A stretch of 64,000 nucleotides of DNA from NCBI GenBank assembly GCA_905339405.1, contig CAJPGC010000007.1, positions 27,739 through 91,738 on the forward strand, written 5' to 3'. Under the pieces are notes generated by a model, which made no database searches, was not told the origin of the DNA, and saw only the letters and a list, made by a program, of their open reading frames with translations. Source of the stretch: an uncultured bacterium (GTDB lineage Bacteria > Desulfobacterota > GWC2-55-46). The position numbers and the translations under genes are program-made. Position 1 is the first letter of the stretch. Every line of letters begins with the position of its first letter. This document shows, in pieces, positions 2,900-47,356 of the stretch.

Positions 2900-5017
2900 T
2901 TATCTCTTTTGGGCCGCGAGCCAGGAAAGGGCCGCGTTATAGACTACGTCGTGCCTGCCTTTGTATATCTTCAGGACCGCCCCGTTAGAGTCCCTTTCGT
3001 GGAGCAGCTTGACCCCGGCTTCTTCGAATAGGTCGTCATTGAACTCGCCTGTAAAATCCGGCGGAAGCCTGTGCTCTTTCGAGATTGATTCGATTACCTC
3101 TTCCGAAAGGCGGCCCTTGCCGTCGGCGAGGTCGTTGAAGGCCCGGAGAGAATGGGCGGGCGGCACGAAGCTGTCGTCCAGTCCGACGGCTATATAGACC
3201 GGGACCTTGCTTTTTGCGCCCTTGAGGTATTCGCTGGGGCTCCTTTTCCTGCATTCTTTTTCGTGGGAATTGCCGTGCTCCGGCGGCCCTCCGCATGAAG
3301 CTGTTATGTCTTTTGAATAATGATGGCTCGCGCCCTTTGTGTGTCCGTACCAGTCGACGAGGTCGTAGACCGCGCCCCATGAGACGACTCCCGCCCATTT
3401 GTCAGGGTACTTCCCGGCCATTATGAGGGCTGTCATCGCTCCGCCGGAGAAGCCCGCTATATACACTCTGGAGACGTCGATGTCCGCGTTCTTTTTCGCG
3501 TATTCCAAGGCGTCGAGAATGTCGAGTATTGCCGCTTCCGACGCCGTTGCCGAAGGGTTGTCGAACGGCCCCCGGTAGTCGGGCTGCATGAAGACCCAGT
3601 CGTTCTCAAGCGCCCAGATACCGTAAGGTATGCCGAAGGATTGCCGGTAGTCCTCGCTCCAGCTGTGGAGGACTATGAGGAGCGGCTTGGCGCGCCTGGA
3701 GCCCGAGTCATAGAAAAGGGCCTTCTGGTCTTCCCTGTCATGGCTTGATTCGATTGTAATGGCCTCTACCTGCGGGACGGCTTTTTCCCATGCCTTAAGG
3801 TCGTCCATCTTCTTCAGGGAAGTCGCGGCAAAGCCGGTCAGGGTCTTGAACTCGTTCTTATCGATGAGTTTCACCGGCCCGGCTCCGGCAGCGTAGAGGC
3901 TCGAGGCGAAAAACGCCGGGATGATTAACGAGGGCACGATATATCTAACGGCCGGAAGGCTCCTTATTATTGCGACTGTAAGCAAAGAAGCGATGAATAC
4001 GAAAAATGAGAAAACAGGGATGCCTATGAATGGGTCCGTCATCCCGGGGGTGAGCTCCAGCCCGAGCATCCCTCTTTTGGCAACCGCTATGAAAGCCGCG
4101 TGGACGAGGTAGACGCCCGGCACGCAGGCCGCGATGAAGCTCAACGCCCTGGCAGCGTACCCCGGGTTTCCCTGAAGGAACGAAAGATTCATGCTTTTTA
4201 CCATGAGGAAGATTGAGATGGCCATCATGAAGACGCTGAAGCTGAAATACTCGTAGAATATGCCGCTGAACCGGCCGCCATTTCTTATTATGGACGTAAA
4301 GTAGGTCCCGTATGCCGTTATGGAGAGGCCCGCGGCGAAGAGCATGAGGAAAAGGACCTTTCTCGAGGTCTTGAGCTCGTAATCCCTCAGCATCCAGCCC
4401 AGGGCGAAGTAGCCTATGAACTTGAATATGGAATTCCCTGTACCTGAAGAGATGTAGGTTGTGACATTGAACCATGCCTCGACGAAAGGCAGGGCGCTTG
4501 CGGCCGCGAACCACAGGGCAAGGTAGTACCAGCCGTGGAGGCGGCGCGCATTTTTCATGTACAGGCCCATGAATGGGGCAACGAGATAAAGGCCCATGAG
4601 GAGGTACATGTACCAGAGGTGGTAGTAGACCGGCTCCATGAAGAGCATCGGGATGAAAGAAGAAAGGCGCAGCTCCTCTCCGTTGGCGTATATCCTCCAG
4701 AGGAAGTAAAAAAAGCTCCAGACGATGAAAGGTACGAAGACCCGAGTAAACCTCCTGAGGAAAAAGCTCCCCATCGAATCGTCGCGGTACTTGCCGATGA
4801 GGAAAAAGCCGCTCAGCATGATGAAAACCGGGATGCACCAGCGGGAGAGGGAATCATAGAAGTTGCCTGCCCACCATTGGCGGAGCCCGTGTGTCTCGTA
4901 GCCGGTCACGTACGGGGCGGCGGAGTGGATCAATATGACTGCGTATACCGCGATGATTTTAAGGAGGTCGGCCCAGATGAGACGGCCTTTGCCGTCCGTT
5001 GTGGATATTCTTTCCAT
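2900..5017 (-). CDS. Fusion of an acyltransferase-3 (OafA-like) membrane domain with a C-terminal alpha/beta-hydrolase (S9/esterase-like)
   Basis: N-terminal ~370 aa are polytopic with acyltransferase_3 character. C-terminal part carries GFSGG (GxSxG), GLDDSFVPP and His typical of alpha/beta hydrolases. Confidence 0.7.
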   Translation of the reverse strand: MERISTTDGKGRLIWADLLKIIAVYAVILIHSAAPYVTGYETHGLRQWWAGNFYDSLSRWCIPVFIMLSGFFLIGKYRDDSMGSFFLRRFTRVFVPFIVWSFFYFLWRIYANGEELRLSSFIPMLFMEPVYYHLWYMYLLMGLYLVAPFMGLYMKNARRLHGWYYLALWFAAASALPFVEAWFNVTTYISSGTGNSIFKFIGYFALGWMLRDYELKTSRKVLFLMLFAAGLSITAYGTYFTSIIRNGGRFSGIFYEYFSFSVFMMAISIFLMVKSMNLSFLQGNPGYAARALSFIAACVPGVYLVHAAFIAVAKRGMLGLELTPGMTDPFIGIPVFSFFVFIASLLTVAIIRSLPAVRYIVPSLIIPAFFASSLYAAGAGPVKLIDKNEFKTLTGFAATSLKKMDDLKAWEKAVPQVEAITIESSHDREDQKALFYDSGSRRAKPLLIVLHSWSEDYRQSFGIPYGIWALENDWVFMQPDYRGPFDNPSATASEAAILDILDALEYAKKNADIDVSRVYIAGFSGGAMTALIMAGKYPDKWAGVVSWGAVYDLVDWYGHTKGASHHYSKDITASCGGPPEHGNSHEKECRKRSPSEYLKGAKSKVPVYIAVGLDDSFVPPAHSLRAFNDLADGKGRLSEEVIESISKEHRLPPDFTGEFNDDLFEEAGVKLLHERDSNGAVLKIYKGRHDVVYNAALSWLAAQKR

Positions 5018-5152: not shown

Positions 5153-5491
5153 ATGCCAAAAAATAACAGGGGAACAGCACACGGCGCCGATTCAAAGGTC
5201 ACTACCGACCATGAAGAGATAAGAAGATGGGCGGAGGCGCGGGGCGGGAAACCGGCTTCGGTGAAAAGGACCCGCGAAAAAGACGGGCCAGGGATAATCC
5301 GCATCGATTTTCCCGGCTTTACCGGGGGCAAATCCCTTGAGCCGATCTCATGGGAAGAGTTCTTCAAGCAGTTCGACGAACGAAAGCTCGCCTTCCTCTA
5401 CCAGGAAAAGACGGCTTCAGGGGAAGTAAGCCGCTTCAACAAGCTCATATCCCGCGAGAGTGCGGCTGAACGGGGCAAAAAAGCGGCTTGA
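5153..5491 (+). CDS. Conserved hypothetical protein
   Basis: 112-aa ORF with an RBS (aaggagaagccaATG) and a conserved-looking block TTDHEEIRRWAEARGGKPA...IRIDFPG. Confidence 0.5.
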   Translation: MPKNNRGTAHGADSKVTTDHEEIRRWAEARGGKPASVKRTREKDGPGIIRIDFPGFTGGKSLEPISWEEFFKQFDERKLAFLYQEKTASGEVSRFNKLISRESAAERGKKAA

Positions 5492-5713
5492 GAGGTCAGG
5501 TTGCGCGCATTTGAGTTAAAGGAGCTCTGTAAGTCAAACCCGCTGAATGACTTACGGGGGTTTCCCTCGAAATGTGACTCAGGTCATGGCGCTGAAAACC
5601 GCTCCGGGGTAAAATCTCCTGGCGGCAAATTTGCGACCCTCAAAACGCCGTTTATCATAAATACCAATCCCTGTTTTTAATCCCCGCCAAAAAAACTCTT
5701 CTTTACATGGTGC

Positions 5714-6847
5714 TTGACAGTGAAAATACCGACCGCGCTCGACCCGGAACTTTTCGCCACGGCGCTCGATACGCTGCCCTTCAAATATTACATAGTCGAT
5801 AAAGACCTGAACGTCCTTTTCTGGAACAGGAAAGGCGAGGAAGGCCCTTATGGCGTCAGGCAGGAAGACGCTGTCGGCAAGCATCTTGAAGCCGTTCTGG
5901 CAATAAACAGGGCGCACGTGAGCTCCCCGAAGCCGATACCCGAGATGGAGGCCGAGTTCAGGGAGGTCTTCGAAAAGGGGAGTATCATCTCCTCCGAGGA
6001 GTCTTCAGTACTCAAAAGCGGCGAGAAAAGATATTACAGGATAACGAAAACCCCTCTTCGCGGCGAAGACGGCGATGTTGCGCATACGGCCGTCATAATC
6101 GAGGACATCACGGACCAGAGAAGGCTTGAGTCGATGCTCATAGCCAAGGAGAAGCTTTTCGCCCTCGAGGACCTGGCTTCCGGTATCGCGCACCAGATAA
6201 ACAACCCCCTTTCAACGATGATGCTGTGCTCGGAATCGATGCTGAACGAGGTACGCAAGGGCGCGGTGTGCGACCCCGAGGCCGCGCTGAGGTTCGAGCA
6301 TTATCTTGAGATGACCTGCAAGCAGATTTCAAGGTGCAAGCAGGTCTCGAACATGCTGGTGGATTTCGGCAGCAACGAGGCCGGTAAAAAGGGCAGGACC
6401 GATGTGAACAAATTGCTCGGCGAGGCGGTTTCTCTCCTTAAATCGAGCAAAAGGTTCTCTGTCCCGTCAGTGGAAAAGGAGCTTTCAGCGGACATCCGGA
6501 CCATAACGGCAAGCGAGCCGCACTTGAGGCAGGTATTCTTGTCCATCCTTGTCAATGCCTTCGAAGCTGTGGACGGCAAGGCGGGCGGCGCAATAAGGGT
6601 TTCCACGTTCATGTCGGGCGAGGGGCAGAAAAAAGAAGTCGCCGTTGCCGTCCAGGACAACGGGAGCGGAATGGAGCGGGAAAAACTGCGCAGGATTTTC
6701 ACTCCGTTCTTTACGGCCAAAGGCGGCTCCCACGCGGGCCTTGGTCTTTCGGTTGCGCACCAGATAGTCTCCGGGCACGGCGGCAGGATAGAAGTCGAAT
6801 CAGAAGCCGGGAAGGGGAGCACGTTCACCGTGCTCCTCCCGTCCTGA
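5714..6847 (+). CDS. PAS-domain sensor histidine kinase
   Basis: PAS region, H-box (ASGIAHQINNPL) and HATPase_c motifs (DNGSGM, GGSHAGLGL). Confidence 0.8.
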   Translation: MTVKIPTALDPELFATALDTLPFKYYIVDKDLNVLFWNRKGEEGPYGVRQEDAVGKHLEAVLAINRAHVSSPKPIPEMEAEFREVFEKGSIISSEESSVLKSGEKRYYRITKTPLRGEDGDVAHTAVIIEDITDQRRLESMLIAKEKLFALEDLASGIAHQINNPLSTMMLCSESMLNEVRKGAVCDPEAALRFEHYLEMTCKQISRCKQVSNMLVDFGSNEAGKKGRTDVNKLLGEAVSLLKSSKRFSVPSVEKELSADIRTITASEPHLRQVFLSILVNAFEAVDGKAGGAIRVSTFMSGEGQKKEVAVAVQDNGSGMEREKLRRIFTPFFTAKGGSHAGLGLSVAHQIVSGHGGRIEVESEAGKGSTFTVLLPS

Positions 6848-6858
6848 CAGGCGAAAGC

Positions 6859-8211
6859 ATGGACTCTCAGAAGAGGAAAATAAGGGTATGCGTCATAGAT
6901 GACGAGGAGGCCCTTGTCGGCGTGCTCAAAGAGGAGCTGGCCAGGGAGGGCTTCGAAGTCGCCGCTGCCTTGAACGGTAGCGACGGCATAAAGCTCCTTG
7001 AGCACAAGCCCTTTGACGTCTGCCTACTCGACCTCAATATGCCGGGACTTAACGGCCTTGACGTGCTCGGCAAGGCCGCCCAGCAGGCTATCCCTACCGA
7101 GTTCATAGTCCTTACTGCTTGCGCCACTGTGCAGACGGCTGTCGAGTCCATAAGGCTCGGCGCGTACGATTACCTCACTAAGCCATGCAACCTGGACAGG
7201 ATAGTCTTCCTTATAAAAAAGGCACATGAGAAAAGGTGCATGCGCCAGGAGAGCCTGATACTGAAGCGCATGACCGAGGCAAGGGGCGCCAGGATAGCCA
7301 CGGCCAGCAAGGCGATGCTCCAGGTCATAAAAGAAGCCGAAAAAGTGGCCGGCACTGAGGCTCCTGTGCTCATACTCGGAGAAAGCGGGACAGGCAAGGA
7401 GGTCATGGCGGAGTTCATCCATGCCAATTCAAGCCGCTCCGAGGGGCCGTTTATCGTATTCAATTCGGCAGCCATACAGGAGAACCTTTTCGAGAGCGAG
7501 CTTTTCGGGTATGAAAAGGGCGCGTTCACCGGGGCCAACTCATCCAAGGAAGGGCTCTTCGAGCTGGCGGACGGAGGGACGCTGTTCCTTGACGAGATAG
7601 GCGAGGTCCCTCAGCAGATGCAGGCGAAGCTTCTGAGGGCCATAGAGAAAGGGACTTTCTACAAGGTCGGCGGCACGAAGGAGATACGCGTTGACATAAG
7701 GGTGCTGAGCGCGACGAACAAGGACCTGCCCGGGATGGCTAAGGGAAACGCGTTCAGGGATGACCTTTACTACAGGCTCAGCAGCATCACCCTGACGCTG
7801 CCGCCGCTGCGTGAAAGGAGGGAAGACATCAAGCCGATTGTCGAGGAACTGCTGGCGCGCCTCCCTGCCGGATACACAAAGAGCATCGATGATGCCGCGC
7901 TCGAGCTCATGGCAAGGCATGACTGGCCCGGCAACATAAGGGAGCTTCAAAACGTAGTCAACAGGGCTGCCATCCTTTCCGATTCAGACCGGATCGGGCC
8001 GGGAGACCTTCCGCCTGAGTTCAAGGACGGCCCCGTAAACCAGGCGCGTCCCGCCCAAAGCGGCGGACTGCTGTCTTTGTGCGACCTTGAAAGGGAGCAC
8101 ATAATAAGAGTCCTCGGCCACACGGCGGGGCAGAAGAAAAAGGCCGCCGGAATACTCGGAATAGACGTAAAGACCCTTTACCGCAAACTCAAGCAATACG
8201 GGATATCCTGA
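6859..8211 (+). CDS. Sigma-54-dependent response regulator (NtrC family: REC, AAA+, Fis HTH)
   Basis: REC domain; Walker A GESGTGKE; GAFTGA sigma-54 contact motif; C-terminal HTH. Confidence 0.85.
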   Translation: MDSQKRKIRVCVIDDEEALVGVLKEELAREGFEVAAALNGSDGIKLLEHKPFDVCLLDLNMPGLNGLDVLGKAAQQAIPTEFIVLTACATVQTAVESIRLGAYDYLTKPCNLDRIVFLIKKAHEKRCMRQESLILKRMTEARGARIATASKAMLQVIKEAEKVAGTEAPVLILGESGTGKEVMAEFIHANSSRSEGPFIVFNSAAIQENLFESELFGYEKGAFTGANSSKEGLFELADGGTLFLDEIGEVPQQMQAKLLRAIEKGTFYKVGGTKEIRVDIRVLSATNKDLPGMAKGNAFRDDLYYRLSSITLTLPPLRERREDIKPIVEELLARLPAGYTKSIDDAALELMARHDWPGNIRELQNVVNRAAILSDSDRIGPGDLPPEFKDGPVNQARPAQSGGLLSLCDLEREHIIRVLGHTAGQKKKAAGILGIDVKTLYRKLKQYGIS

Positions 8212-8239
8212 AGCCCGGGCTTCTCTCTTCCCCAGAGGT

Positions 8240-8268
8240 CATTATGCCATGCCGCGCGTCGCATAATG
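8240..8268 (+). promoter_or_regulatory. Inverted repeat, candidate enhancer (UAS) for the NtrC-like activator
   Basis: CATTATGC-N13-GCATAATG perfect 8-bp arms, about 60 nt upstream of the sigma-54 -24 element. Confidence 0.35.
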
Positions 8269-8324
8269 CCCTGCCGTAATCCTTCATAAAACAAAAAAGA
8301 TTGTAAAAACCGCTGGTTCTTCTC

Positions 8325-8339
8325 TGGCACGCCGTTTGC
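8325..8339 (+). promoter_or_regulatory. Sigma-54 (-24/-12) promoter
   Basis: TGGCAC-gccgt-TTGC exactly matches the TGGCAC-N5-TTGC(A/T) consensus, 16 nt upstream of the ATG at 8355. Confidence 0.55.
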
Positions 8340-8354
8340 GTTTGGGAAGTCACC

Positions 8355-8717
8355 ATGAGATTCCTTATCGTAGACGATGACCGCTACATGATGACCCTGG
8401 TCGCCTCCATCCTCAAGAAGCATAAGGTCGAGGTCGTAAGCCATTCAAACATAGGCGACGCGCTCCGGAACCTCATAGAAGAGGATTTCGACGGGGTGCT
8501 GCTGGACCTGCATCTGCCCGGCATGGACGGGCTCAGCGCAATCCCGCTCGCCAGGCAGATAAGGCCGGAGATAAACATAGGACTGATGACCGGAGATACG
8601 AGCCCGGAGGTGCGCGCGAGGGCCCTTACAGGCGGAGCCGACTTCTTTTTTCAAAAGCCCGCCGACCTGAATAACCTTTGGGAAGTCATCAGGGGCTGCA
8701 CGAGAAAGGAGAATTAG
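8355..8717 (+). CDS. Single-domain response regulator (CheY-like receiver)
   Basis: REC motifs (LIVDDD, phospho-acceptor D in VLLDLHLPGMDG, T/K downstream). Confidence 0.8.
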   Translation: MRFLIVDDDRYMMTLVASILKKHKVEVVSHSNIGDALRNLIEEDFDGVLLDLHLPGMDGLSAIPLARQIRPEINIGLMTGDTSPEVRARALTGGADFFFQKPADLNNLWEVIRGCTRKEN

Positions 8718-9212
8718 ATGTCAAAGGTCCTGCAGCTTGTCGGCTTCAGAAATGGAGATGAGTTCTTCGGAGTACCCATAAGCAAGGTCAGGGAGATAGT
8801 AAGGGTGCCGGAGATTACGCCCGTTCCGGATATGCCCGAGTTCCTCAAAGGAGTTATTAACTTGAGGGGCAGGATTGTCGCGGTGGTCGACATGAGCAGG
8901 CGTCTGGGGACGGCAGGCCCCGGGGCCAAAAAGGCGAACCGGGTGCTGATACTCGAGTTGGGCGGCAGCCTTACGGGGCTCATAGTCGATTCAGTATCGG
9001 AAATAGTAAAAATCGACGAGGAGTCAATAGAGCCGCCGCCCGAGATGATATCGTCCATCGGGGCGGAATACGTGACCGGAGTCGGCAAGCTCAAGGACAG
9101 GCTTTTCATCCTTCTGGAGATAGACAAGCTCATGAAGCCGGAGGAGATGCTCAGGGTCAGGGCGGCTGACAGGACAGACGGCGCTGAAGATGCGGTTTCG
9201 GCCGCCGGTTGA
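8718..9212 (+). CDS. cheW: Chemotaxis coupling protein CheW
   Basis: CheW-like domain (FGVPISKVREIV, VINLRGRIVAVVD). Confidence 0.85.
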   Translation: MSKVLQLVGFRNGDEFFGVPISKVREIVRVPEITPVPDMPEFLKGVINLRGRIVAVVDMSRRLGTAGPGAKKANRVLILELGGSLTGLIVDSVSEIVKIDEESIEPPPEMISSIGAEYVTGVGKLKDRLFILLEIDKLMKPEEMLRVRAADRTDGAEDAVSAAG

Positions 9213-9263
9213 CGCGGGTACCAGCCCGTTTTGAACGCGGGCTTTTAAATTTCCACGGAGGCG

Positions 9264-11210
9264 ATGATGACTAAGATAGGCAGGAAATTGCTCCTCGGTT
9301 TCATGGTGATTATCGCGCTGACGATAGGGTTCAGCGGGATAATTTACCTTTTGATGGGCAAGCTCTCGGGCAGTATCGCGGAGATGAACGAGTACGGCGA
9401 GCAGCAGGCCGCTGCCGGGGATTTGAGTTACAGCATCACCTGGCTGACCATGCCTGGCAACGATTACATCATAACCGGAGAAAAAAAATATCTGGACGAG
9501 TTTAACAGCCAGTCGCGCCAGGTCGACGGCGACTTCAGGAAAATGGAGGCCCTTGACCTCTCTGAAGAGGAAAAAGAGCTTGTAAGGGACCTGCACGCGT
9601 TCTCCGACGGCGTCAAGGCGTCCGGGCAGAAGATCTTCGAGATAGAGCGTCCGGTGGGCGACCCGGCCGCCGCCGAGCTCATGAAGGAGATGGACTACAA
9701 ATACGCGGCCCCGGCCGCTGAAAAGCTGATGGAACTTGTCGGCATGATAAAAGACAAGAGGGCCGTTGCCAGCAAGAACGCGGCAGACGCCAGGTTCATG
9801 ATGAATATGACCATCGTCGCCGGGGCGTTCCTCACCGCCTGCATTTCCATCATGATAGCCTTCCTCATAGCGCGTTCAATCTCCAGGCCCATAGGAGAGA
9901 TATCCGAGGCGGCCCGGAAGATATCAAGAGGCGAGCTGGACAGCGACGTCTCCGTGAAGTCGAACGACGAGATAGGTGTCCTTGCGGATTCTTTCAGGGG
10001 GATGATCCAGTACCTGAAGGGAATGGCGCATACCGCCGAGGCCATAGCTGAGGGCGACCTCACAAGGGAGGTGGAGCCGAAGTCTGAAAAAGACGTTCTA
10101 GGCAACGCCTTCAACAGGATGATAAAGGGGCTCGGCAGCATAGTAAGCCAGGTAAGGAACGGCTCCGAGCAGATAGCCTCCGCCTCTGCGGAGGTTGCGG
10201 CCTCGAGCGAGCAGACAAGCAAAAACGGCGAGACCGCCTCGACCGCAGTCGAGGAGATAACCTCGACGATGCACGAGATGAGCGCCAACATCCAGAACGT
10301 CGCCAGGAGCATACAGTCACAGTCGCAGTTCGTGGTTGAGACTTCGACTTCGATTGAGCAGCTGATAGCCTCGATAGAAAGGGTCGCGGTCAACGCCAAG
10401 AGGCTGGTCGAGCTGGCGATGGAGAGCAACGAGGCTGTGACCTCCGGCAGGATGGCCGTCGACGTCTCCTCCGACGGCGTGAGGAACATCATCCAGGTCA
10501 TAACCAAGTCGGCGGATACGATAAAGGCCCTGGGCGTCAGGACGGAGGACATAGGCAGGATAATCGACGTCATTGACGACATAGCCGAGCAGACCAACCT
10601 GTTGGCGCTGAACGCCGCGATAGAGGCCGCCAGGGCCGGTGAGCATGGCATGGGGTTCGCGGTCGTGGCAGACGAGGTCAGAAACCTGGCCGAGCGATCT
10701 GCCAAATCTACCGCCGAGATATCGGCCCTCATCTACGGGATACAGAAGGACGCCGCTGGCGCGGTGCAAAACGTCGAGAAAAACGTAGAGATAGTCGGCA
10801 ACGCGTTGAGGCTCTCGGACGACGTTGTTGAGTCGCTACGGAAGATAGATTCTTCCGTGAGCGAGGTGGCGAGATATTCGCAGGAGATAGGCGCTGCAAC
10901 CGCGGAGCAGGCATGCGGGTGCGGCGAGATAACGAAGGCCGTGAGCAAGCTCAACGACATAACCCAGGAGATAAGCTCCTCGGCGGACGAGCAGGCCTCC
11001 GGCACGGAGCAGGTCGTAAAAGGCGTGGAGAAGCTCCGCGAGATGATCCAGCAGAACACGGCCAGCGCGGTGCAGCTCGCCGCAGCGGCCGAGCAGATGA
11101 ACAGCCAGTCGGAATCCCTCAGCGTCACAGTGGGCAGGTTCGTCGTCGAGGAGCAGGAGGTCGCTCCCGTACTGAAGAACAAGAAGCTGAAACTGGTGGC
11201 GGCCATCTGA
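9264..11210 (+). CDS. Methyl-accepting chemotaxis protein (2 TM, periplasmic sensor, HAMP, MA domain)
   Basis: Two TM helices flank a ~160-aa sensor region. Highly conserved MCP signalling box [35 protein letters not shown]. Confidence 0.9.
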
Positions 11211-11232
11211 GCCCGTATAGGAACAGGGGATA

Positions 11233-12096
11233 GTGTTGATGCAAACGACGATATTCCAGACAGCTGACGCCAACGCCTGCATGAGCGACGACGAATTTCT
11301 GCTCCTCCGCAACCTCGTGTACCAGGAGAGCGGGTTGTGGCTCAAGGAGGAGAAAAAGAGCTTTATCGCCCACAGGGCATTGAAGCGGATGAAGGGCAGG
11401 AACATACCAAGTTATTTCAGGTACTACAAGCTTTTAACCGACAAGGACGGCGGAAAAGACGAGCTCCGCGGTTTCCTTGACGACCTGACAATAAACGAAA
11501 CGTCCTTTTTCCGGAACAAGCCCCAGATGGACCTTTTTGCCGAGGTCGTGCTCCCCAAGCTCCTTGCCAAGAAAAGGGAGCAGGGCTCATTTAGCTTGAG
11601 GCTCTGGAGCGCGGGCTGCTCGACCGGGCAGGAGCCGTACTCACTGGCGATAGCCATAAGGCACTCGCTACTGGACTTCAGGAACTGGAGGATAACCATC
11701 CTTGCCTCGGACCTGAGCCTCTCGGCCCTGGAGACGGCGCAGGCCGGGTTTTACGGCGCGGCGAAAATGGAGGGCGTGGAAAGGAAGTTCGTGGACGCGT
11801 ACTTCCGCAAGGCCGACGGCGGGTACGCTGTCTCAGAGGAGATAAGGAAGCTCGTGGTCTTCGATTACCACAACCTCATGAACGAGAACGGCGAAAAGGA
11901 CTTCGACGTGATTTTCTGCAGGAACGTGCTTATCTATTTTGACGAGCAGACGCAGAAAAAGGTAATCGAACGGTTTGAGAAGGCGCTCGCCCCCGGAGGC
12001 TATCTGTTCCTGGGCCACAGCGAGACGCTCCAGGGCATAAACGACCATTTCGTATTCATGCACCACAACAGGGGAACGGCGTACCTGAAAAAATGA
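11233..12096 (+). CDS. cheR: Chemotaxis protein methyltransferase CheR
   Basis: CheR motifs ETSFFRN and SAGCSTGQEPYSLA (SAM-binding). Confidence 0.9.
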   Translation: MLMQTTIFQTADANACMSDDEFLLLRNLVYQESGLWLKEEKKSFIAHRALKRMKGRNIPSYFRYYKLLTDKDGGKDELRGFLDDLTINETSFFRNKPQMDLFAEVVLPKLLAKKREQGSFSLRLWSAGCSTGQEPYSLAIAIRHSLLDFRNWRITILASDLSLSALETAQAGFYGAAKMEGVERKFVDAYFRKADGGYAVSEEIRKLVVFDYHNLMNENGEKDFDVIFCRNVLIYFDEQTQKKVIERFEKALAPGGYLFLGHSETLQGINDHFVFMHHNRGTAYLKK

Positions 12097-12123
12097 CGGC
12101 CGTCCGCCGGAGGCTCGGGCTCC

Positions 12124-14181
12124 ATGGACCATGAAAACGACACGATAATGCTGACTGAAGAGGAGCTCGACGCCCTCAAGGAGACCTTTTACGCCCAGGC
12201 CCTTGAGATGAGCGAGGAGCTTACCGCGGAGATACTCTCGCTTGAAGCCAACGATTGCGCGGGCGAGCCGGTCAAACGCATAAAAAGGTACTTCCATACC
12301 TTAAAAGGCGATTCATCCTCCATAGGGCTCAAGGCCATCTCCGAGCTCATACACAGCGCCGAGGACTTGATGGCCGCCCTGGAGGACAGGAGTATCGCGC
12401 TGGACGGGGCCGTCTTGGAGGTTCTGCTGAAGTCCGTGGACGAGATTGAAAAGGCGATAAGCGCCGACCGCTTAGGCTCCAAGCACGAAATTCCCACACG
12501 CCTGAAAGAGGATATGGAGCAGCTGCTGGGGAAGGCGCGCGGGACCCCACGGCTTGCGATGACGGAATATGAAGAGCTCGTCCTTTCGACCAGCCTGGCG
12601 GAGGGCATGAAAATATATAGGCTCACGCTGGAGTTCTCCGGCGACTGCGTGATGAAGTCCGCCAGCGCGCTCCTTCTATTGCAGTACCTGTCCAGCGAGA
12701 TGGAGGCGATAAGGGTCAGCCCTTCACCCGAGGACCCGGCAATAGAGTCGGCCCGGTTCTTCGAATGCATCGCCGCGAGCAAGAGGCCCGCCCATGAGCT
12801 CAAAAAGCTCTGCCTGATACCGGGGGTGACTTCAAAGGCCGCGTGCGAGGAGCTCGACGCAGCTTCAATCGTAGCTTCTCCTGAAAAAGCCGGGACTGAA
12901 ACGCCCGTCGACAGCGTTGACAGGGGTCTTGACAAGGCGGCTCCGGCGACCATCAGGGTGCTTTCCGAGCGAGTCGACCAGATGATGGACCTCGTCGGCG
13001 AGCTCGTGATGGGCCGCTCCATGATAGAGGAGCTCGTCGGCAGGTTCGAGGCGCGCTACCCCAAGGACGAACTCGTGCACGGGTTTGTAAAGGCCAGGTC
13101 GTTCATCTCCCGCAGCTTGAGCGACCTTCAGAGGTCGGTCATGTCTATAAGGATGATACCCGTTGAGAAGGTCTTCAGGCGTTTCCCCAGGATGGTCAGG
13201 GACCTCAGCAATTCGAGCGGCAAGGAGATAAGCCTTCTTCTTAAGGGCGAGCGCACCGAGATAGACAAGGCGCTCGTCGACGTCATAGGCGAGCCCCTGC
13301 TGCACATCATAAGGAACGCCGTGGACCACGGGATGGAGACTTCCGCGGATAGGAAAAAAGCAGGCAAGCCTGCCGAGGGCACAATAACCGTAGAGGCATG
13401 CCACAGGGACAGCGAGATAGTCATACGGGTAGCGGACGACGGCAGGGGCATGGACGCGGGCAGGCTTAAGGAGAAGGCCGTGTCGATGGGGTATGTAAGC
13501 CCTGAGCAGGCTGGCGCAATGGAGGACAGCGAAGCCTTGCGTCTCATATTCATACCTGGTTTTTCAACAGCCGAAAAGGTGAGCGGCATCTCGGGGCGCG
13601 GCATAGGCATGGACATCGTAAAGGAGACCGTCGAAGGGATGAGGGGTTCGGTTTCGGTCGTCTCCTCACCTGGCAAGGGGACAGAGTTCACGCTCAGGTT
13701 CCCGCTTACGCTTTCGATAATGAGGGCCGTTCTCGTAAGGGCGGGAGGTACCATGTACGCGCTCCCGCTCGGTTCGGTCGCCGATATAAAGAGGGTCCGT
13801 CCCCATGACATAGATTCTCTGACCGGAATGGACGTGCTGAATTTGAAAGGCGGCCCGCTTCCCCTTACCGGCATAGACGGCCACGGTGCGGAAAACAGAG
13901 CCGGCCTCAGGCGCTCCAAGGCGTTCGTCCTTACCCTGAAACACGGGGGCAGGAAGGTCGGGCTCGTCGTGGACTCCCTCGCGGGCGAAGAAGAGCTCGT
14001 CGTAAAGGCTGTGGACGACGCGATTGTCTCCACGCCCCTGGTGAGCGGAGCGTCCATCCTCGGAAACGGAAAAGTCGTTTTGATATTGAATATAGGCGAG
14101 CTCATCTCCAGGACCCTCACAAACCCCGAATCGCTCGGATACAGGCGTTTTGAGCGCAAACCCACAGGTACAAATGGCTGA
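12124..14181 (+). CDS. cheA: Chemotaxis histidine kinase CheA
   Basis: HPt (YFHTLKGDS), dimerisation, HATPase and C-terminal CheW-like domains. Confidence 0.9.
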   Translation: MDHENDTIMLTEEELDALKETFYAQALEMSEELTAEILSLEANDCAGEPVKRIKRYFHTLKGDSSSIGLKAISELIHSAEDLMAALEDRSIALDGAVLEVLLKSVDEIEKAISADRLGSKHEIPTRLKEDMEQLLGKARGTPRLAMTEYEELVLSTSLAEGMKIYRLTLEFSGDCVMKSASALLLLQYLSSEMEAIRVSPSPEDPAIESARFFECIAASKRPAHELKKLCLIPGVTSKAACEELDAASIVASPEKAGTETPVDSVDRGLDKAAPATIRVLSERVDQMMDLVGELVMGRSMIEELVGRFEARYPKDELVHGFVKARSFISRSLSDLQRSVMSIRMIPVEKVFRRFPRMVRDLSNSSGKEISLLLKGERTEIDKALVDVIGEPLLHIIRNAVDHGMETSADRKKAGKPAEGTITVEACHRDSEIVIRVADDGRGMDAGRLKEKAVSMGYVSPEQAGAMEDSEALRLIFIPGFSTAEKVSGISGRGIGMDIVKETVEGMRGSVSVVSSPGKGTEFTLRFPLTLSIMRAVLVRAGGTMYALPLGSVADIKRVRPHDIDSLTGMDVLNLKGGPLPLTGIDGHGAENRAGLRRSKAFVLTLKHGGRKVGLVVDSLAGEEELVVKAVDDAIVSTPLVSGASILGNGKVVLILNIGELISRTLTNPESLGYRRFERKPTGTNG

Positions 14182-15271
14182 CCAGCGGAAGACTAAGGTA
14201 ATGGTCGTCGATGATTCTGCCCTGATGAGGCGGATGATACCCCTTATCCTGGAGAAAAGCCCGGAAATCGAGGTCGTGGCCACTGCGGTGGACGGAAGGT
14301 TCGCCCTGAGCAAGGCTGAAAAAAACAGGCCGGACGTCATCACCCTCGACATGGATATGCCAGGCATGGACGGCCTTACAACCTTGAAGCACATAGTGCG
14401 CGATTTCGGCATCCCGGTAGTTGTCGTAAGCTCCATGACGACCAGGGGGGCCGAGCTCACCATGAAGGCCTTTGAGCTCGGCGCGATGGACGTCATCGCT
14501 AAACCTGCCGACGCCATCTCGGTGAACATAAAAGAGATTGCCGAGGAACTTATTGAAAAGGTGCTCGCCATCGGCAGAAGCTCGGTCTCGAAGCTCCACC
14601 TCGATGTCCCTGCGGAAAAACTCCCTGAGCCGAGGCCGGCTGTCTGCTCAAGGGCAAAAACGGCCGAGCAGGTGATCGCGATCGGGATATCTACCGGTGG
14701 GCCCAACGCGCTCTCCTATATGCTGCCGCTCCTTCCGGCGGACCTTCCTGCTGCCGTGCTCGTGGTCCAGCACATGCCTGCCGGTTTTACTGAGGTGTTC
14801 GCTTCCCGCCTTAACAAGGCCTGCGCCCTCGAGGTCAGGGAAGCGCGGGACGGCGACCTTGTCACGCCGGGGCGGGTGCTGATAGCGCCGGGCGACTACC
14901 ACATGAAGATAAAGAAAACCGCCCTCAGCACAATCGTGGTCCTGAGCTCGCGCCCGGCTGTGAACGGCCACAGGCCTTCGGCCGACGTCCTCTTTAACTC
15001 CGTTGCCGCCGAGTACGGCCCGAGCTCGGTGGGCGTCATTATGACGGGAATGGGAGAGGACGGAGCCGAGGGGATAGGCGAGATAAAGAAGGCCGGCGGG
15101 CGTACCCTTGCGCAGGATGAAAACACCTCGGTAGTTTTCGGGATGCCAAAGGCCGCCATAAGAAGAGGGTATGTCGACAGGGTCATCCCGCTCGAGCGGA
15201 TGGCGGAGGCGGTTGCCGGCGAGATAACTTGGAAAAGAGGAGGACGGCAAATTGCGGCCAATCACAAGTGA
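14150..15271 (+). CDS. cheB: Chemotaxis methylesterase/deamidase CheB (REC + CheB_methylest)
   Basis: N-terminal REC and C-terminal methylesterase domain (GISTGGP, VVQHMPAGFT). In-frame alternative ATG at 14174 overlaps the cheA stop by 8 nt. Confidence 0.9.
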   Translation: MSANPQVQMADQRKTKVMVVDDSALMRRMIPLILEKSPEIEVVATAVDGRFALSKAEKNRPDVITLDMDMPGMDGLTTLKHIVRDFGIPVVVVSSMTTRGAELTMKAFELGAMDVIAKPADAISVNIKEIAEELIEKVLAIGRSSVSKLHLDVPAEKLPEPRPAVCSRAKTAEQVIAIGISTGGPNALSYMLPLLPADLPAAVLVVQHMPAGFTEVFASRLNKACALEVREARDGDLVTPGRVLIAPGDYHMKIKKTALSTIVVLSSRPAVNGHRPSADVLFNSVAAEYGPSSVGVIMTGMGEDGAEGIGEIKKAGGRTLAQDENTSVVFGMPKAAIRRGYVDRVIPLERMAEAVAGEITWKRGGRQIAANHK

Positions 15272-15653
15272 AGTAGATAAAAGCGCGTACAGTTTCCTGA
15301 TAGTCGACGATTCTCTTTTCGCGAGGAAAAACATCGCCAAGGCGGTCGAAGCCATAGGCGGCAACGTGGTCGGGGAGGCCGTGAACGGAAGGGAAGCCGT
15401 AGAGAAGTACTTTGAGCTCAGGCCTGACCTCGTGCTCATGGACATCTCGATGCCGGAGATGGAAGGCATCGAGGCGCTCGGGCTCATCAGGGAGCGCGAC
15501 AGCTCGGCCAAGGTCGTCATTGTGAGCTCGCTGGGCCATCAGGAGATGGTCAAGAAGGGGATATCCCTCGGCGCGAAACACTTCATCTCAAAACCCGTGG
15601 TGCTCGAGAAGGCGGCGGACATCATCAAATTCGTGTTGGCGCAGAAAGGCTGA
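15252..15653 (+). CDS. cheY: CheY-like response regulator
   Basis: REC domain (FLIVDDS, VLMDISMPEMEG, SKP). Confidence 0.8.
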   Translation: MRPITSEVDKSAYSFLIVDDSLFARKNIAKAVEAIGGNVVGEAVNGREAVEKYFELRPDLVLMDISMPEMEGIEALGLIRERDSSAKVVIVSSLGHQEMVKKGISLGAKHFISKPVVLEKAADIIKFVLAQKG

Positions 15654-15656
15654 TTC

Positions 15657-16124
15657 ATGAGGATAGAGTTCATAAACCCTTTTGTCGAGGCCGCCTTGAG
15701 CGTCCTCGACGCCGTACTCCAGGAGCCCTCTTCGAAGGGCGAGATGACGCTGGAGAGGGGGCTGGCGCAGCGGGAAAGCTTTTCAGTCAGCTTCGGCCTC
15801 ACAGGCGGCATCGAAGGCATGGTACTGTTCGACGCCAACGAGCGGACAGCGATGGACATAGCCGGAGCCATGAACGGGCGCAGGTTTGAGGAGATGGAGC
15901 CGCTGGTGCTGGACAGCATGGCAGAGCTGATGAACATGATAATAGGCAGCAGCGTCAGCTTGCTCAACGAAAGCGGCTTCAGGTTCGAGCTGACGCCGCC
16001 GTCGATACTGTGGGGAAGGGACATGAAGCTTTTCCCTATCAATCTCGAGACGCTTAAAGTCCCTCTTCACTCGCCGAAGGGCGTTTTGACCATCAGCATT
16101 TCAATGAAGCCGAGGGTAGGTTGA
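15657..16124 (+). CDS. cheX: CheX-family chemotaxis phosphatase
   Basis: CheX-like composition (FINPF..., MNMIIGSS) directly after cheY. Confidence 0.7.
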   Translation: MRIEFINPFVEAALSVLDAVLQEPSSKGEMTLERGLAQRESFSVSFGLTGGIEGMVLFDANERTAMDIAGAMNGRRFEEMEPLVLDSMAELMNMIIGSSVSLLNESGFRFELTPPSILWGRDMKLFPINLETLKVPLHSPKGVLTISISMKPRVG

Positions 16125-16174
16125 ATGCCGATGACGGCCCGGATAAAAGACGGTAAACGCGAGGGGCGTACCCT

Positions 16175-17359
16175 ATGCAGCTGACCGGCAACCTTGAAGA
16201 CATAGGCCTGGGTGAGATTTTCCAGATACTCGGCTTCAGCGGCAGGTCCGGAGTCCTGCGCCTGCGCGACACGAAGACCGAGGGGCTGGTCGTCTTCAAG
16301 GAAGGGAAAATAATAAAGGCCTTTTCAAGCCAGCTGCGCTTCTCCGTCGGCGAGAAGCTCCTAGAAGGCGCGAAGATAAGCGCCGCGCAGCTGGAAGAAG
16401 GGCGCAAAAAACAGCGCGAGAGGGGCTTTGTCGAGCCGCTTGGAAGACTGTTGGCCAGGAGCTTCAACGTGCCAGCCGAATGCGTCGAGGCAGCCGCCAC
16501 GGAGCTCATACAGAGTGCCGTCCAGGGCTTTTTTTCATGGAGAGGCGGGTACTTCGAATTCGACCTGGGGGATTACGCCGAGACGCCCGACGTAATAAAA
16601 GACGACGCGCTCCAGCACACGCTGAAGACAGGGTTGAACCCGCAGTTCCTCGCAATGGAAGGGTTGAGGGTGGCGGACGAGGCCGACAGGGACGGCCAGG
16701 GCGCGTCTTCTGCCCCTCAAGCCGTAGAGCGGGCTCAGGAAGAAAACAACTCTTTTTGCTCGGTAAGCGAGATGCTGCATGAATTGGGAGCCGATGAGCA
16801 GTTCCTCGAGACGAAGGGTTTTCAGGCCGGTTCCACCAGCAGGGGGCTTGCGGTCCTCAAGGAGATGCTCGAAGAGCTGGCCAGGCCGCTGACGATGAAC
16901 GAGATACTGCTTCTGATATTGAGGTTCAGCAGCGAGTTCATAAACAGGTCCGTGGTCTTTGTGATGAAGGACGGCCATATAGCGGGGTTCGGGCAGTTCG
17001 GCATAGAGCTTGACGGCGAGCAGCCCGACAAAAGGATAAGGGGAATAAAGATACCAGACAGAGGGCGGTCAATACTCGCGGAAGCTGTCGAGAAGAGGAA
17101 AATAATAGTCAGGGAACTCGAAAAAACAGAGTGGGACGAGTACCTGATGGATCAGCTTGGCGGAAGCAGGCCCATTGAGGCCTTCGCCGCGCCGGTCATC
17201 CTTCAGAACAGGGTCGTGATGGTGCTGTACGGCGACAACGTGCCCGAGGCCAGAAAGCTCGACGGGCTTTCCGTACTGGAGACCTTTCTGGCGCAGACGA
17301 GCATAGCCATGGAGCGGATGATATTGATGAGCGGCTCCGCGAACGCAAGCTGGTTTTAA
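16175..17359 (+). CDS. DUF4388-domain protein with C-terminal GAF-like region
   Basis: N-terminal DUF4388 signature (GNLEDIGLGEIFQILGFSGRSGVLRL...GLVVFKEGKII), a domain frequently embedded in Frz/Che-like clusters. Confidence 0.65.
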   Translation: MQLTGNLEDIGLGEIFQILGFSGRSGVLRLRDTKTEGLVVFKEGKIIKAFSSQLRFSVGEKLLEGAKISAAQLEEGRKKQRERGFVEPLGRLLARSFNVPAECVEAAATELIQSAVQGFFSWRGGYFEFDLGDYAETPDVIKDDALQHTLKTGLNPQFLAMEGLRVADEADRDGQGASSAPQAVERAQEENNSFCSVSEMLHELGADEQFLETKGFQAGSTSRGLAVLKEMLEELARPLTMNEILLLILRFSSEFINRSVVFVMKDGHIAGFGQFGIELDGEQPDKRIRGIKIPDRGRSILAEAVEKRKIIVRELEKTEWDEYLMDQLGGSRPIEAFAAPVILQNRVVMVLYGDNVPEARKLDGLSVLETFLAQTSIAMERMILMSGSANASWF

Positions 17360-17372
17360 AAGGGGTCTTTAG

Positions 17373-18239
17373 ATGGTCATCTCGTGCCCGGCGTGCTCTA
17401 AAAAATTCAACTTCAACGGCGAGGCGAAAAACCACGCACGGTTCAGGTGCACGGCCTGCGGGGCTGTTTTCAGCATGGGCGGGGAGCCCTCTGCAAAAAC
17501 AGCTGCGGGACAGAAGGCTTTCAAGGTCTTGGCCGCAACCGAAAACAACTCGATAGAGCGTGCAGTGAAAGCCGCCCTTGCAGACGGCAGGATAGAGCTT
17601 TCATTGGCGGCAGACGGCAACCAGGTTTTTGAAAAGATTTCCATCGATAAACCGCACCTGCTTATACTGGACGCCGCCATACAGGGAATGTTCAGCTTTA
17701 CGCTTTGCGAGAAGATTAAGAGCGACCAGTCGCTTCAGGACATAAAGATAATCCTGACGTCCGCGGCGTTTAATAAAAGCCGGTATAAGCGCAGGCCCTC
17801 GGAGCTGTTCGGGGCCGATTGCTATATCGAAGCCCATCAGCTCGAGGACGCCCTGGCAGGAAAAGCTGGCGCACTGCTCGGGGTCGAGCTTCGCGGGAGC
17901 GTGGCGGATGGCGTCGGGCCTGCGGGCAACGCGAGGGAGAACTCAGGCCCTGAAAATGGACTCGAGGAGAAGGACGCGAAAAAAACAGATGAAGACGGCA
18001 AGGCAAAACGGCTGGCGCGGGTCATAGCCGCCGACATCTTGTTGTATCACAGGAAAAAGCTCAGCCAGAAAGTTGAAAAACAGGACGCATCTGTCCTGTT
18101 CAAAGAAGAGATAGACGAAGCCGTCAAGTACTTCAATAAGAGGCTCCCCGGAGCAGATATCGCGTACATCCACGCGGCGATAGAAGAGTGTCTCGATTCG
18201 ATGAACAAGACCATGGGCACGGAGGCTGCGAATTGCTGA
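17373..18239 (+). CDS. Zinc-ribbon (MJ0042-type CxxC...CxxC) protein with receiver-like domain
   Basis: N-terminal CPACSKKF...CTACGAVF zinc ribbon; central REC-like fold (HLLILDAAIQGM ... IILTSAA). Confidence 0.6.
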   Translation: MVISCPACSKKFNFNGEAKNHARFRCTACGAVFSMGGEPSAKTAAGQKAFKVLAATENNSIERAVKAALADGRIELSLAADGNQVFEKISIDKPHLLILDAAIQGMFSFTLCEKIKSDQSLQDIKIILTSAAFNKSRYKRRPSELFGADCYIEAHQLEDALAGKAGALLGVELRGSVADGVGPAGNARENSGPENGLEEKDAKKTDEDGKAKRLARVIAADILLYHRKKLSQKVEKQDASVLFKEEIDEAVKYFNKRLPGADIAYIHAAIEECLDSMNKTMGTEAANC

Positions 18240-18312
18240 GCTCGACGAGAGTGGCGTTGGCCCGCATTTTTGCAGCGCAAGGCGTTGATATTCGCACCGA
18301 AAGGAACTTGAT

Positions 18313-19182
18313 ATGAGCCTTCCGGAAAGAAGACCAGAGAGTCAGGAAAGCCCGGTAGAGCGGGAAAGCCGTCAGGGCGCACCGCGTTCCACAAAGGGCG
18401 TCGAGATGGTGACGATGCTCAAGAAGGGCCTCGAGTACACACAGGACCTCCTCAAGGAGAACGAATGGCTGAGGCAGACCGCCATCAAGCTTCAGGAGCA
18501 GAACCGGCTTCTTCAGGCAAGGGTCAAGGACCCTTGCCCCGGCGCTGACTCCGCCGAGTTGATGGAGAGGCTCAAGTCCTCGCAGCAGGAGAAGGCCGGG
18601 CTCGAGGAGCGGACAAAAGAGCTGGAGAGGGAAAACCAGGAGTTCGCCAACCGCTATGTCGAGATTGAAGAGCAGAACCAGATGCTCACCAACCTGTATA
18701 CGGCCAGTTTTCAGCTTCATTCATCCCTCGACTACAACGAAGTGCTCAGAGGAGTCACCGAGATAATCATAAACCTCATAGGCGCGGAGAGGTTCGCGGT
18801 CATGCTGCTCGACGAGAAATCCCTTGTCCTCACGGCGGTAGCGGCCGAGGGGATGGAGATGGAGGAAGTGCTTCCTGTCAAGGTGGGTGAAGGCGCCGTA
18901 GGCGCGGCGGTCTCTTCCGGAGAGGTCTTTTACGGCAGCGGTGAAGCCTCCGGCGGGAGCCCTCTGGTCTGCCTGCCGCTCAAAATAGGGGAGAAGGTCA
19001 TAGGCGTCATCGTCATCTACGACCTCCTCAGGCAGAAAGAAAAGTTCACGGAAATCGATTACGAGCTCTTCTCGATGCTTGGAGACCATACCGCTACCGC
19101 TCTGTTCAGCGCGAAGCTTTACACCGAGTCGGAGAGAAGGCTGTCGACCATACAGGGGTTCATAGACCTTATTACCAAGTAG
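18313..19182 (+). CDS. Coiled-coil / GAF-domain protein
   Basis: Long heptad-rich coiled coil followed by a GAF-like region (FAVMLLDEKSLVL...GVIVIYD). Possible alternative start at MVTMLKKG. Confidence 0.6.
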   Translation: MSLPERRPESQESPVERESRQGAPRSTKGVEMVTMLKKGLEYTQDLLKENEWLRQTAIKLQEQNRLLQARVKDPCPGADSAELMERLKSSQQEKAGLEERTKELERENQEFANRYVEIEEQNQMLTNLYTASFQLHSSLDYNEVLRGVTEIIINLIGAERFAVMLLDEKSLVLTAVAAEGMEMEEVLPVKVGEGAVGAAVSSGEVFYGSGEASGGSPLVCLPLKIGEKVIGVIVIYDLLRQKEKFTEIDYELFSMLGDHTATALFSAKLYTESERRLSTIQGFIDLITK

Positions 19183-19186
19183 GAGA

Positions 19187-19576
19187 ATGAAAATGAGTGA
19201 TTACCGCGTGCTTGTCGTTGAAGATTCTCCGACAATGTCGCAGCTTCTCAAGTTCACGCTCAGGAGGATAAAGGGGCTCGAGGTGGTGACGGCTAGCGAC
19301 GGGGTGGACGGGCTTAAAAAACTGGCCAATGCCAAATACGACCTAGTGCTCACGGACATAAACATGCCCCTCATGGACGGGCTCAAGCTCATAGGGCTTG
19401 TGAGGGGGGACGGCAACGGGACGAACAAGAGCGTTCCCATTGTGATAATTACGACCGAAGGGGAGGACGACGCCCGCAGGGAGGGGCTCGCGCTCGGCGC
19501 TACGTCATATATAACCAAGCCCATAAATTCGCGCGAGGTTATCGATACCGTGATGAAATGCCTCGGGGCCGCATAG
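19187..19576 (+). CDS. Single-domain response regulator
   Basis: REC motifs (VLVVEDSPT, LVLTDINMPLMDG, TKP). RBS ggagaatgaaaATG. Confidence 0.85.
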   Translation: MKMSDYRVLVVEDSPTMSQLLKFTLRRIKGLEVVTASDGVDGLKKLANAKYDLVLTDINMPLMDGLKLIGLVRGDGNGTNKSVPIVIITTEGEDDARREGLALGATSYITKPINSREVIDTVMKCLGAA

Positions 19577-21015: not shown

Positions 21016-21235
21016 AAATGTGAATGGCATGAGATACGCGCCAGGCGGGATGACTTTTCAAGTCATCCCGCCTGGCTTTTTTTCAGCCCGGGCCCGTTAC
21101 GCGCAAACGCTCGCAAAGGCTTTGTTTTTTCGGGTTGTTTGTGGTAAATCTTGGGTAGGGTACTCTGTTTTTTTCTCATAAGTTTTTGTACTTGCCGAGG
21201 CTTTTAAATTTTTAAGAAAGCGGGTCATAAAAAGC

Positions 21236-47335: not shown

Positions 47336-47356
47336 AGGGTAACGTTTGTTACCCTA
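47335..47356 (+). promoter_or_regulatory. Palindromic operator (candidate LexA/SOS box) overlapping the lexA start codon
   Basis: TAGGGTAAC-GTTT-GTTACCCTA: perfect 9-bp inverted arms, located between the -10 element and the ATG. Confidence 0.45.

Follow-up and report, generated by a model that had tools for sequence, protein, structure and literature searches.

We have analysed a stretch of 64,000 nucleotides (referred to throughout as the window) from contig CAJPGC010000007.1 of assembly GCA_905339405.1, which derives from an uncultured bacterium of the Desulfobacterota lineage GWC2-55-46. In it, the genes for a PAS-domain sensor histidine kinase and an activator of the NtrC family lie directly upstream of a cluster of chemosensory (che) genes. 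The region between the activator gene and the first che gene, cheY1, contains a predicted sigma-54 promoter and, upstream of this, a pair of palindromic sites which we describe as a candidate enhancer. The features at the centre of the analysis, with positions counted from the first letter of the window, are as follows.

5714–6847, + strand: cytoplasmic PAS-HisKA-HATPase sensor histidine kinase (Pfam PAS_4, HisKA, HATPase_c)
6859–8211, + strand: NtrC-family enhancer-binding protein with REC (receiver), AAA+ and HTH_8 domains (Pfam)
8238–8248, no strand assigned: candidate enhancer (upstream activating sequence, UAS) site 1, GTCATTATGCC; consensus in the relatives GGCATTnTGCC
8260–8273, no strand assigned: candidate enhancer (UAS) site 2, CGCATAATGCC(CTG); consensus GGCAAAATGCCCTG; starts 22 bp after site 1
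8286–8309, no strand assigned: A-rich tract ATAAAACAAAAAAGATTGTAAAAA, an A-rich block conserved in alignment A1 between enhancer and promoter
8325–8339, + strand: predicted sigma-54 promoter TGGCACGCCGTTTGC, with GG at 8326–8327 and GC at 8338–8339
8350–8355, + strand: predicted transcription start zone, 11–16 nt after the C of the −12 GC
8355–8717, + strand: cheY1, first gene of the operon; begins with ATG and lacks both a usable start further upstream and a conserved Shine-Dalgarno sequence
8718–19576, + strand: the other 11 genes of the che cluster (Pfam), with intergenic gaps of 0–73 nt
21040–21076, + strand: strong intrinsic terminator (17-bp stem and T run), 3′ of the open reading frame (ORF) 20056–21015

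The kinase gene starts at either a TTG codon at 5714 or a GTG codon at 5720, and the H-box of its product reads HQINNPL. The activator gene begins 11 nt after its end, and the two are kept as a pair across all of the related loci described below. Matches of the activator above the Pfam cut-offs were obtained for PF00072, PF00158, PF25601 and PF02954 (REC, Sigma54_activat, HTH_8), and its motifs are intact: GAFTGA (in the context EKGAFTGA), Walker A (GESGTGKE) and Walker B (LFLDEIG). The presence of GAFTGA in an activator implies sigma-54. None of the NCBIfam equivalogs for named activators (NtrC, AtoC, ZraR, FlgR and others) reaches its cut-off, the best being AtoC with 422 bits against a cut-off of 714, with ntrC at 389 against 559; nor did NCBIfam give a named subfamily for the kinase or for the accessory che proteins. 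Judged by its sequence, the activator is a member of the NtrC family that belongs to no named subfamily.

The candidate enhancer and predicted promoter upstream of cheY1

The predicted promoter, TGGCACGCCGTTTGC, is the only exact match to TGGCAC-N5-TTGC on either strand of the window. It fits the longer core TGGCACG-N4-TTGC, and exactly 10 bp lie between its GG and its GC. Shuffled sequences gave a mean of 0.07 matches to the shorter motif, with at least one match in six of 100 shuffles. There is no other exact sigma-54 core in the window, and the one-mismatch matches (at 13, 42480 and 52934) are at the level expected by chance. The inverted repeat upstream of the promoter consists of the arm CATTATGC at 8240–8247, a 13-nt spacer and the arm GCATAATG at 8261–8268; it too is the sole exact match in the window, and shuffles gave 0.06 matches even when 3 mismatches were allowed. 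An initial annotation of this stretch, made from its letters, had placed an 8-bp-arm inverted repeat at 8240–8268, TGGCAC-N5-TTGC at 8325–8339 just before the first che gene, and the end of an NtrC-type activator gene at 8211. All three are confirmed, the repeat in both sequence and coordinates, the promoter motif as unique in the window, and the end of the activator gene by its ORF and stop codon.

The arms and position of the repeat are thus borne out, but not its reading as a single unit, since the relatives show two quasi-palindromic sites of 11–15 bp. In the window the two boxes are at 8238–8248 and 8260–8270, with the general consensus GGCAwwwTGCC. In the best-preserved loci each box reads AGGGCAwwwTGCCCT, and site 2 has the form GGCAAAATGCC(CTG) in the layout of the relatives. 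The starts of the two boxes are 21–24 bp apart across the loci, which is about two helical turns. Exactly one such pair is found per locus, always upstream of cheY1, where the shuffled expectation is 0.18 pairs per 64 kb. Neither the rest of the window nor the DNA upstream of the kinase genes yielded a further enhancer pair, and thus there is no evidence of autoregulation through this site in the loci where the genes are in tandem.

The comparison rests on 13 related loci, collected from contigs encoding orthologues of the activator and by a DNA-pattern scan for the enhancer. The group of activator orthologues is sharply bounded, with identities of 62–95%, the next proteins being at ~52%. From the names that orthologues and loci carry, the lineage appears to be related to Thermodesulfobacteriota. 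The loci with a che operon beside the kinase–activator pair are L001/L002, L003–L007, L009–L013, L050 and L051, and all of them have a common layout before cheY1, namely two sites, an A-rich tract, YGGCAY-N5-TTGC and an ATG. The promoter motif YGGCAY-N5-TTGC is conserved upstream of cheY1 in 13 of the 13 related loci with an adjacent che operon. Alignment A1 shows conserved islands exactly at the sites, the A-rich tract and the promoter, with diverged sequence between them. Three gene arrangements are found. The genes are in tandem in the window, L001–3, L005–7, L009–11 and L013; they are divergent in L004 and L012/L050, where the enhancer and promoter lie between the che operon and the kinase gene; and in L051, from a Thermodesulfobacteriota metagenome-assembled genome (MAG), the activator gene comes first, followed by a small ORF, the kinase gene, the enhancer and the che genes. 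The linkage of enhancer, promoter and che genes survives all three.

The spacing of the enhancer from the promoter falls into two classes. Measured from where box 2 ends, the T of TGGCAC is 53–55 nt away in eight loci and 64–66 nt away in five, with no intermediates, and the centre of the enhancer is accordingly at −96 to −98 (~−97) or at −108 to −110 (~−109), the classes being ~11 bp apart. Spacing classes that are one helical turn apart, with none between them, are as predicted for a nearby enhancer which acts by looping and depends on the face of the helix. The initial annotation had described the repeat as lying in a typical enhancer position, and this description is supported by dyad sites that are conserved, helically phased and centred ~97 bp upstream of the predicted start. 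The A-rich tract at 8286–8309 is, on its sequence, probably an intrinsic bend; no match to the IHF consensus with one mismatch or fewer was found within 8271–8324.

The enhancer-pattern scans returned 68 stretches of genome contigs and 80 stretches of metagenome contigs, most of them chance matches. After filtering, the genome scan left L050 and L051, which have the che layout, L036, an insertion variant described below, and L021 and L063, whose related site pairs have different targets or a longer leader. From the metagenome contigs came only L096, whose contig ends just past the promoter, L100, which is a copy of L021, and L113 and L120. A protein-based scan of genome contigs with the activator alone gave no relative. 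In L021/L100, L063, L113 and L120 (a Nitrospinae MAG and other contigs), site pairs of the form GGCATTTTGCC...GGCAAAATGCC are followed by −24/−12 promoters, and the leaders are longer or the downstream genes different. There may be a wider family of activators sharing the GGCATTTTGCC...GGCAAAATGCC type of site.

Promoter-to-AUG distance and the predicted leader of the che transcript

The ATG of cheY1 is at 8355, and in the window 15 nt separate the C of TTGC from the A of the ATG. This gap, from the C of the −12 TTGC to the ATG, is 13–16 nt in all 13 loci, and the sequence filling it is unrelated among the more distant ones. The GC of a sigma-54 promoter lies by definition around −12 (PMC2725144), and from this position and the gap of 13–16 nt we infer a leader of 0–5 nt, which gives the start zone listed above. 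On this geometry the che transcript is predicted to be leaderless or to have a leader of no more than ~5 nt. With the promoter 15 nt from the ATG, a normal 5′ untranslated region cannot be accommodated, a point absent from the initial annotation.

The start codon of cheY1 is ATG in 13 of the 13 loci as well as in the window, where there is no ATG, GTG or TTG between the upstream in-frame stop codon and 8355. A start later in the gene would delete the acidic pocket of the receiver domain (MRFLIVDDD), and the assignment is therefore secure. The median energy of anti-Shine-Dalgarno pairing is −1.55 kcal/mol for cheY1 compared with −7.2 for 95 other genes of the same loci (Mann–Whitney p = 8e-5, a value that is only indicative because the loci are related). 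In four orthologues (L003 9455, L007 3698, L009 3490 and L011 2223) cheY1 has been annotated with N-terminal extensions of 9–34 residues which run through the sigma-54 promoter. These extensions are probably mis-annotations; spurious extension by gene callers is to be expected where a Shine-Dalgarno sequence is missing.

The insertion variant, L036 (a Deltaproteobacteria MAG, 3712–3940, minus strand), has ~190 nt of DNA rich in inverted repeats, resembling repetitive extragenic palindromes or miniature inverted-repeat transposable elements (REP/MITE-like), between the promoter and cheY. Enhancer and promoter are retained in L036, as is, 15 nt after TTGC, a vestigial ATG that opens an ORF of 4 codons. 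The displaced cheY has a strong Shine-Dalgarno sequence, GGGGGGAGG.

A candidate regulatory cascade and its alternatives

Two further features lie upstream of the kinase gene.

5573–5588, + strand: CRP/FNR-type palindrome TGTGACTCAGGTCATG, the only match to TGTGA-N6-TCAYR in the window
5610–5615, + strand: −10-like hexamer TAAAAT, 21 nt after the CRP/FNR-type site

The palindrome TGTGACTCAGGTCATG is 126 nt before the kinase ORF. A CRP/FNR-type site is found at the same place in L001, L003, L005, L006, L007 (where it is the perfect TGTGATTTTCATCACA) and L010, so that with the window the layout of site and hexamer is present in seven of the 13 loci examined. The hexamers of the relatives, in the same register, are TAGAAT, TAAAAT, TAAGAT, TAGGCT and TATTCT. 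The distance of 21 nt between site and hexamer would place the centre of the site at ~−41.5 from the predicted start, which is class II geometry. On these sequences the kinase–activator operon appears to be driven by a class II promoter of the CRP/FNR type, which suggests a regulatory tier above the two-component pair. Neither an enhancer pair nor a sigma-54 core was found before the kinase gene in the tandem loci. An ORF of 112 amino acids (5153–5491) with a good Shine-Dalgarno sequence lies between an acyltransferase/peptidase gene and the kinase gene and is conserved at that position in L003 and L006; no Pfam family was found for it.

The initial annotation had proposed that the che operon is transcribed conditionally from a sigma-54 promoter under the control of the adjacent PAS-kinase/NtrC pair. 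The proposal passed each of the in-silico tests applied to it. It gains support from the co-travel of the elements in 13 loci and from a linkage that withstands rearrangement, and we consider it likely that the locus encodes a dedicated two-component sigma-54 switch for a chemosensory operon, with a near-leaderless start and a CRP/FNR tier above it. A factor of the CRP/FNR family, acting at 5573–5588, would set how much PAS kinase and activator is made, in what would be a three-tier cascade. The cytoplasmic kinase would sense an intracellular cue and phosphorylate the NtrC-type activator, which would then assemble on the sites at 8238–8248 and 8260–8273, two turns apart and centred ~97 bp upstream of the start. 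From there it would reach the closed complex of sigma-54 RNA polymerase at 8325–8339 by looping over the A-rich, probably bent spacer, and its ATPase would open the promoter. Transcription would begin at ~8350–8355, 0–5 nt before the cheY1 ATG; cheY1 would be translated from a leaderless or near-leaderless mRNA and the 11 or more downstream genes from their own Shine-Dalgarno sites. In this scheme, we infer from the sequence that the activator binds the repeat, that the promoter is used and that rpoN is present, and likewise the start point, the leaderless mode of translation, the signal to which the kinase responds and the che pathway's output.

Several observations weigh against this scheme or parts of it. 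Six-frame translation of the window gave no RpoN box. The helix-turn-helix region of the activator is similar across paralogues and too generic to tie the activator specifically to the repeat; with such conservation, covariation cannot link protein and site. For one orthologue, L008, the contig that was fetched contains no che genes. No intrinsic terminator is predicted between the end of the activator gene (8211) and cheY1 (8355), so that read-through transcripts with a long leader may also exist, and these could be served by a weak GGGAAG found 5 nt before the ATG in the window and in L010. As the gap varies between 13 and 16 nt, the 5′ end of the mRNA would not coincide with the AUG in every case, and a short leader is stated to reduce leaderless translation in Escherichia coli (work cited in PMC3616915).

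The adjacency of kinase, activator and che cluster also fits a wiring like that of Che3 in Myxococcus xanthus, where the activator CrdA and the kinase CrdS are encoded beside che3 and CheA3 dephosphorylates CrdA~P (PMC3147164). Here the activator would be mainly an output or cross-regulated target of the che pathway, with CheA modulating its phosphorylation together with the PAS kinase, with its main targets elsewhere and with the che-proximal site providing only feedback. We think this unlikely as the principal wiring, although it is compatible with the switch proposed above: Che3 has no CheY, whereas the present cluster has four receiver proteins and a CheX phosphatase, and the sole enhancer pair of each locus precedes the che operon. 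It is very unlikely, in our estimation, that the promoter is real but that another regulator binds the repeat, or another activator serves the promoter, with the adjacent pair having a different target. The similarity of the HTH_8 region in paralogues would allow for this, as would the similar site pairs before other sigma-54 promoters in Nitrospinae and metagenome contigs (L021/L100, L113, L120). Against it, the association of the pair with the site and the che operon persists in three different arrangements and down to a protein identity of 62%, and activators are usually encoded beside their targets.

The remaining two alternatives concern the transcript. The che genes might be expressed mainly by read-through from the kinase–activator operon with a long leader, the sigma-54 site being a modulating or roadblock element, and both the lack of a predicted terminator within 8211–8355 and the weak GGGAAG upstream of the ATG are in keeping with this. 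It is contradicted by the divergent loci L004 and L012/L050, which have no gene reading into cheY1 and yet keep the same promoter and spacing, and it is further opposed by the lack of a conserved Shine-Dalgarno sequence; we regard it as highly improbable. The repeat itself was considered as a terminator and rejected. The broader proposal that it is not a DNA site but an RNA element, such as a 3′ hairpin that terminates or stabilises the activator mRNA, is the least probable of all; in its favour, 8205–8300 folds to −24.3 kcal/mol (z-score −2.9). Against it, the hairpin is not followed by a T run; conservation is seen in the two palindromic boxes and not in stem pairing, and the loop-equivalent sequence varies freely; the distance from repeat to promoter is phased by one helical turn; and the divergent loci have no gene ending upstream of the repeat.

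Within the proposed switch, a more specific claim is that a che operon dependent on sigma-54 and an activator is built for a leaderless or near-leaderless mRNA, the −12 element being held 13–16 nt from the AUG across the lineage, inside a cascade leading from CRP/FNR through the two-component pair to sigma-54. On this claim the first gene lacks a Shine-Dalgarno sequence and acquires one only in L036, where the insertion creates a leader. We favour this claim over its negation, though only slightly. If true, it would, on the literature searched, be the first leaderless operon dependent on sigma-54 to be described, and it would couple tightly gated transcription to a Shine-Dalgarno-independent initiation of translation of the first CheY. 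We found no literature joining sigma-54 promoters with leaderless mRNAs, only papers treating the two separately, in a search whose coverage was incomplete.

Known systems, operon extent and other contents of the window

At glnAp2, the NtrC sites are two palindromes with a 3-bp centre between the arms, on the same face of the helix and ~100 bp upstream of a GG-N10-GC promoter. The present locus resembles this NtrB/NtrC system, the paradigm of two-component sigma-54 enhancer control, in having a kinase and a REC-AAA+-HTH_8 activator, paired palindromic sites with 3-bp centres and a GG-N10-GC promoter. It differs in the sequence of the site (AGGGCAwwwTGCCCT here, TGCACCA-N3-TGGTGCA there), in its PAS kinase sensor, in its chemosensory target and in a promoter that abuts the start codon. 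A kinase and an NtrC-type activator also drive the sigma-54 transcription of motility operons in FlrBC, FleSR and FlgSR. The NCBIfam FlgR model is among the top matches of the activator, though far below its cut-off, but no flagellar genes are found in the window, and PatA_N, GAF and Zn-ribbon-REC proteins are encoded instead.

In Geobacter, −24/−12 promoters are predicted upstream of its main che clusters, with predicted starts 16–50 nt before the ATG (PMC2577667). The sigma-54 regulome of Desulfovibrio vulgaris includes two chemotaxis operons, whose promoters have no predicted UAS, and most sigma-54 promoters of Desulfovibrio are within 100 nt of the activator site (PMC4641369), a precedent that the enhancer–promoter geometry of the window matches. 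Regulation by sigma-54 has also been reported for a chemosensory operon of Rhodobacter sphaeroides (Martin et al. 2006, cited in PMC2577667). This kind of system is therefore already known. What sets the present operon apart from those of Geobacter, Desulfovibrio and R. sphaeroides is that a dedicated activator, an enhancer and its phasing can be assigned here and none has been assigned there; unlike in Geobacter, moreover, the leader is predicted to be essentially absent.

The Myxococcus analogy drawn in the initial annotation stands for gene adjacency and is loose for the wiring. The M. xanthus CrdS/CrdA–Che3 system, which is of the alternative-cellular-function type and from a deltaproteobacterial lineage, likewise has an NtrB-like kinase and an NtrC-like activator beside a che cluster (PMC3147164). 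There, however, the cluster is without CheY and NtrC-like CrdA is the output of the pathway, its targets being unknown (PMC3147164), whereas here there are four receiver proteins and the predicted target of the activator is the che operon itself. Nor does anything show the developmental role that the analogy had also implied. With respect to translation, all 171 mapped leaderless transcripts of Sinorhizobium meliloti start with AUG (PMC3616915). The che transcript shares with leaderless bacterial mRNAs an invariant AUG, the lack of a Shine-Dalgarno sequence and a start codon at or near the predicted 5′ end; it differs from those described in that its 5′ end is a prediction and possibly lies 1–5 nt before the AUG.

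What is added here is the assignment of kinase, activator and enhancer together with the phasing, a promoter fused to the start codon, and a likely CRP/FNR tier. We regard the module, as read from its sequence, as well supported and fairly ordinary, with the near-absent leader as its one unusual detail. In most bacteria that have several chemosensory clusters, both function and regulation are unknown for at least one of them, and for some of these sigma-54 promoters have been predicted without an assigned activator. Here the wiring in cis and in trans (kinase, activator, phased two-site enhancer, promoter) is readable from the sequence and conserved, which makes the locus a testable system for asking when a che pathway containing PatA_N and GAF proteins is deployed. 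The promoter–AUG geometry provides a natural test case for whether functional leaderless mRNAs arise from sigma-54 promoters and for what this does to the amount of the first gene product compared with the products of the other genes.

The gene order on the + strand from 8355 to 19576 is CheY, CheW, MCP, CheR, CheA, CheB, REC, CheX, PatA_N (DUF4388), Zn-ribbon-REC, GAF and REC (Pfam), giving four receiver-domain proteins and CheB, plus the CheX phosphatase. The 12-gene che cluster reported 3′ of the activator is thus upheld as 12 + strand genes, and the transcription unit is possibly longer. After the last receiver gene there is a gap of 479 nt and then an ORF of 319 amino acids (20056–21015), which has no match in Pfam or NCBIfam. 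The first strong terminator on the + strand comes only at 21040–21076, so that the operon may extend to 21015, with 13 genes, and this terminator may be the true end of the transcription unit.

The accessory che proteins PatA_N (DUF4388), Zn-ribbon-REC and GAF are encoded within 16175–19182. PatA_N is kept in those relatives for which DNA was fetched that far, and none of the fetched loci extends to the GAF and Zn-ribbon-REC genes; CheY2 and CheX are not kept throughout the relatives, being absent in L001 and L007. The PatA_N, GAF, Zn-ribbon-REC and CheX proteins, together with the lack of flagellar genes in the 64-kb window, suggest that the output of the che pathway is non-flagellar. A preprint on cyanobacteria describes regulators with a PATAN domain that act on the type IV pilus motor (bioRxiv 10.1101/2021.06.11.447907).

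Elsewhere in the window, downstream of an ankyrin/TPR protein (21236–22315), the region 24041–30377 encodes a radical SAM/SPASM enzyme, two AMP-binding (acyl-adenylate) enzymes and an MBOAT acyltransferase. At 59747–63042, three tandem paralogous Glyco_trans_1_2 genes follow the genes for a B12-binding radical SAM protein and a glycosyltransferase of the GT4 family, and this is probably a surface polysaccharide locus. At 47356–49452, lexA is followed by a gene for a Y-family polymerase (impB/dinB type), forming an ordinary SOS module.

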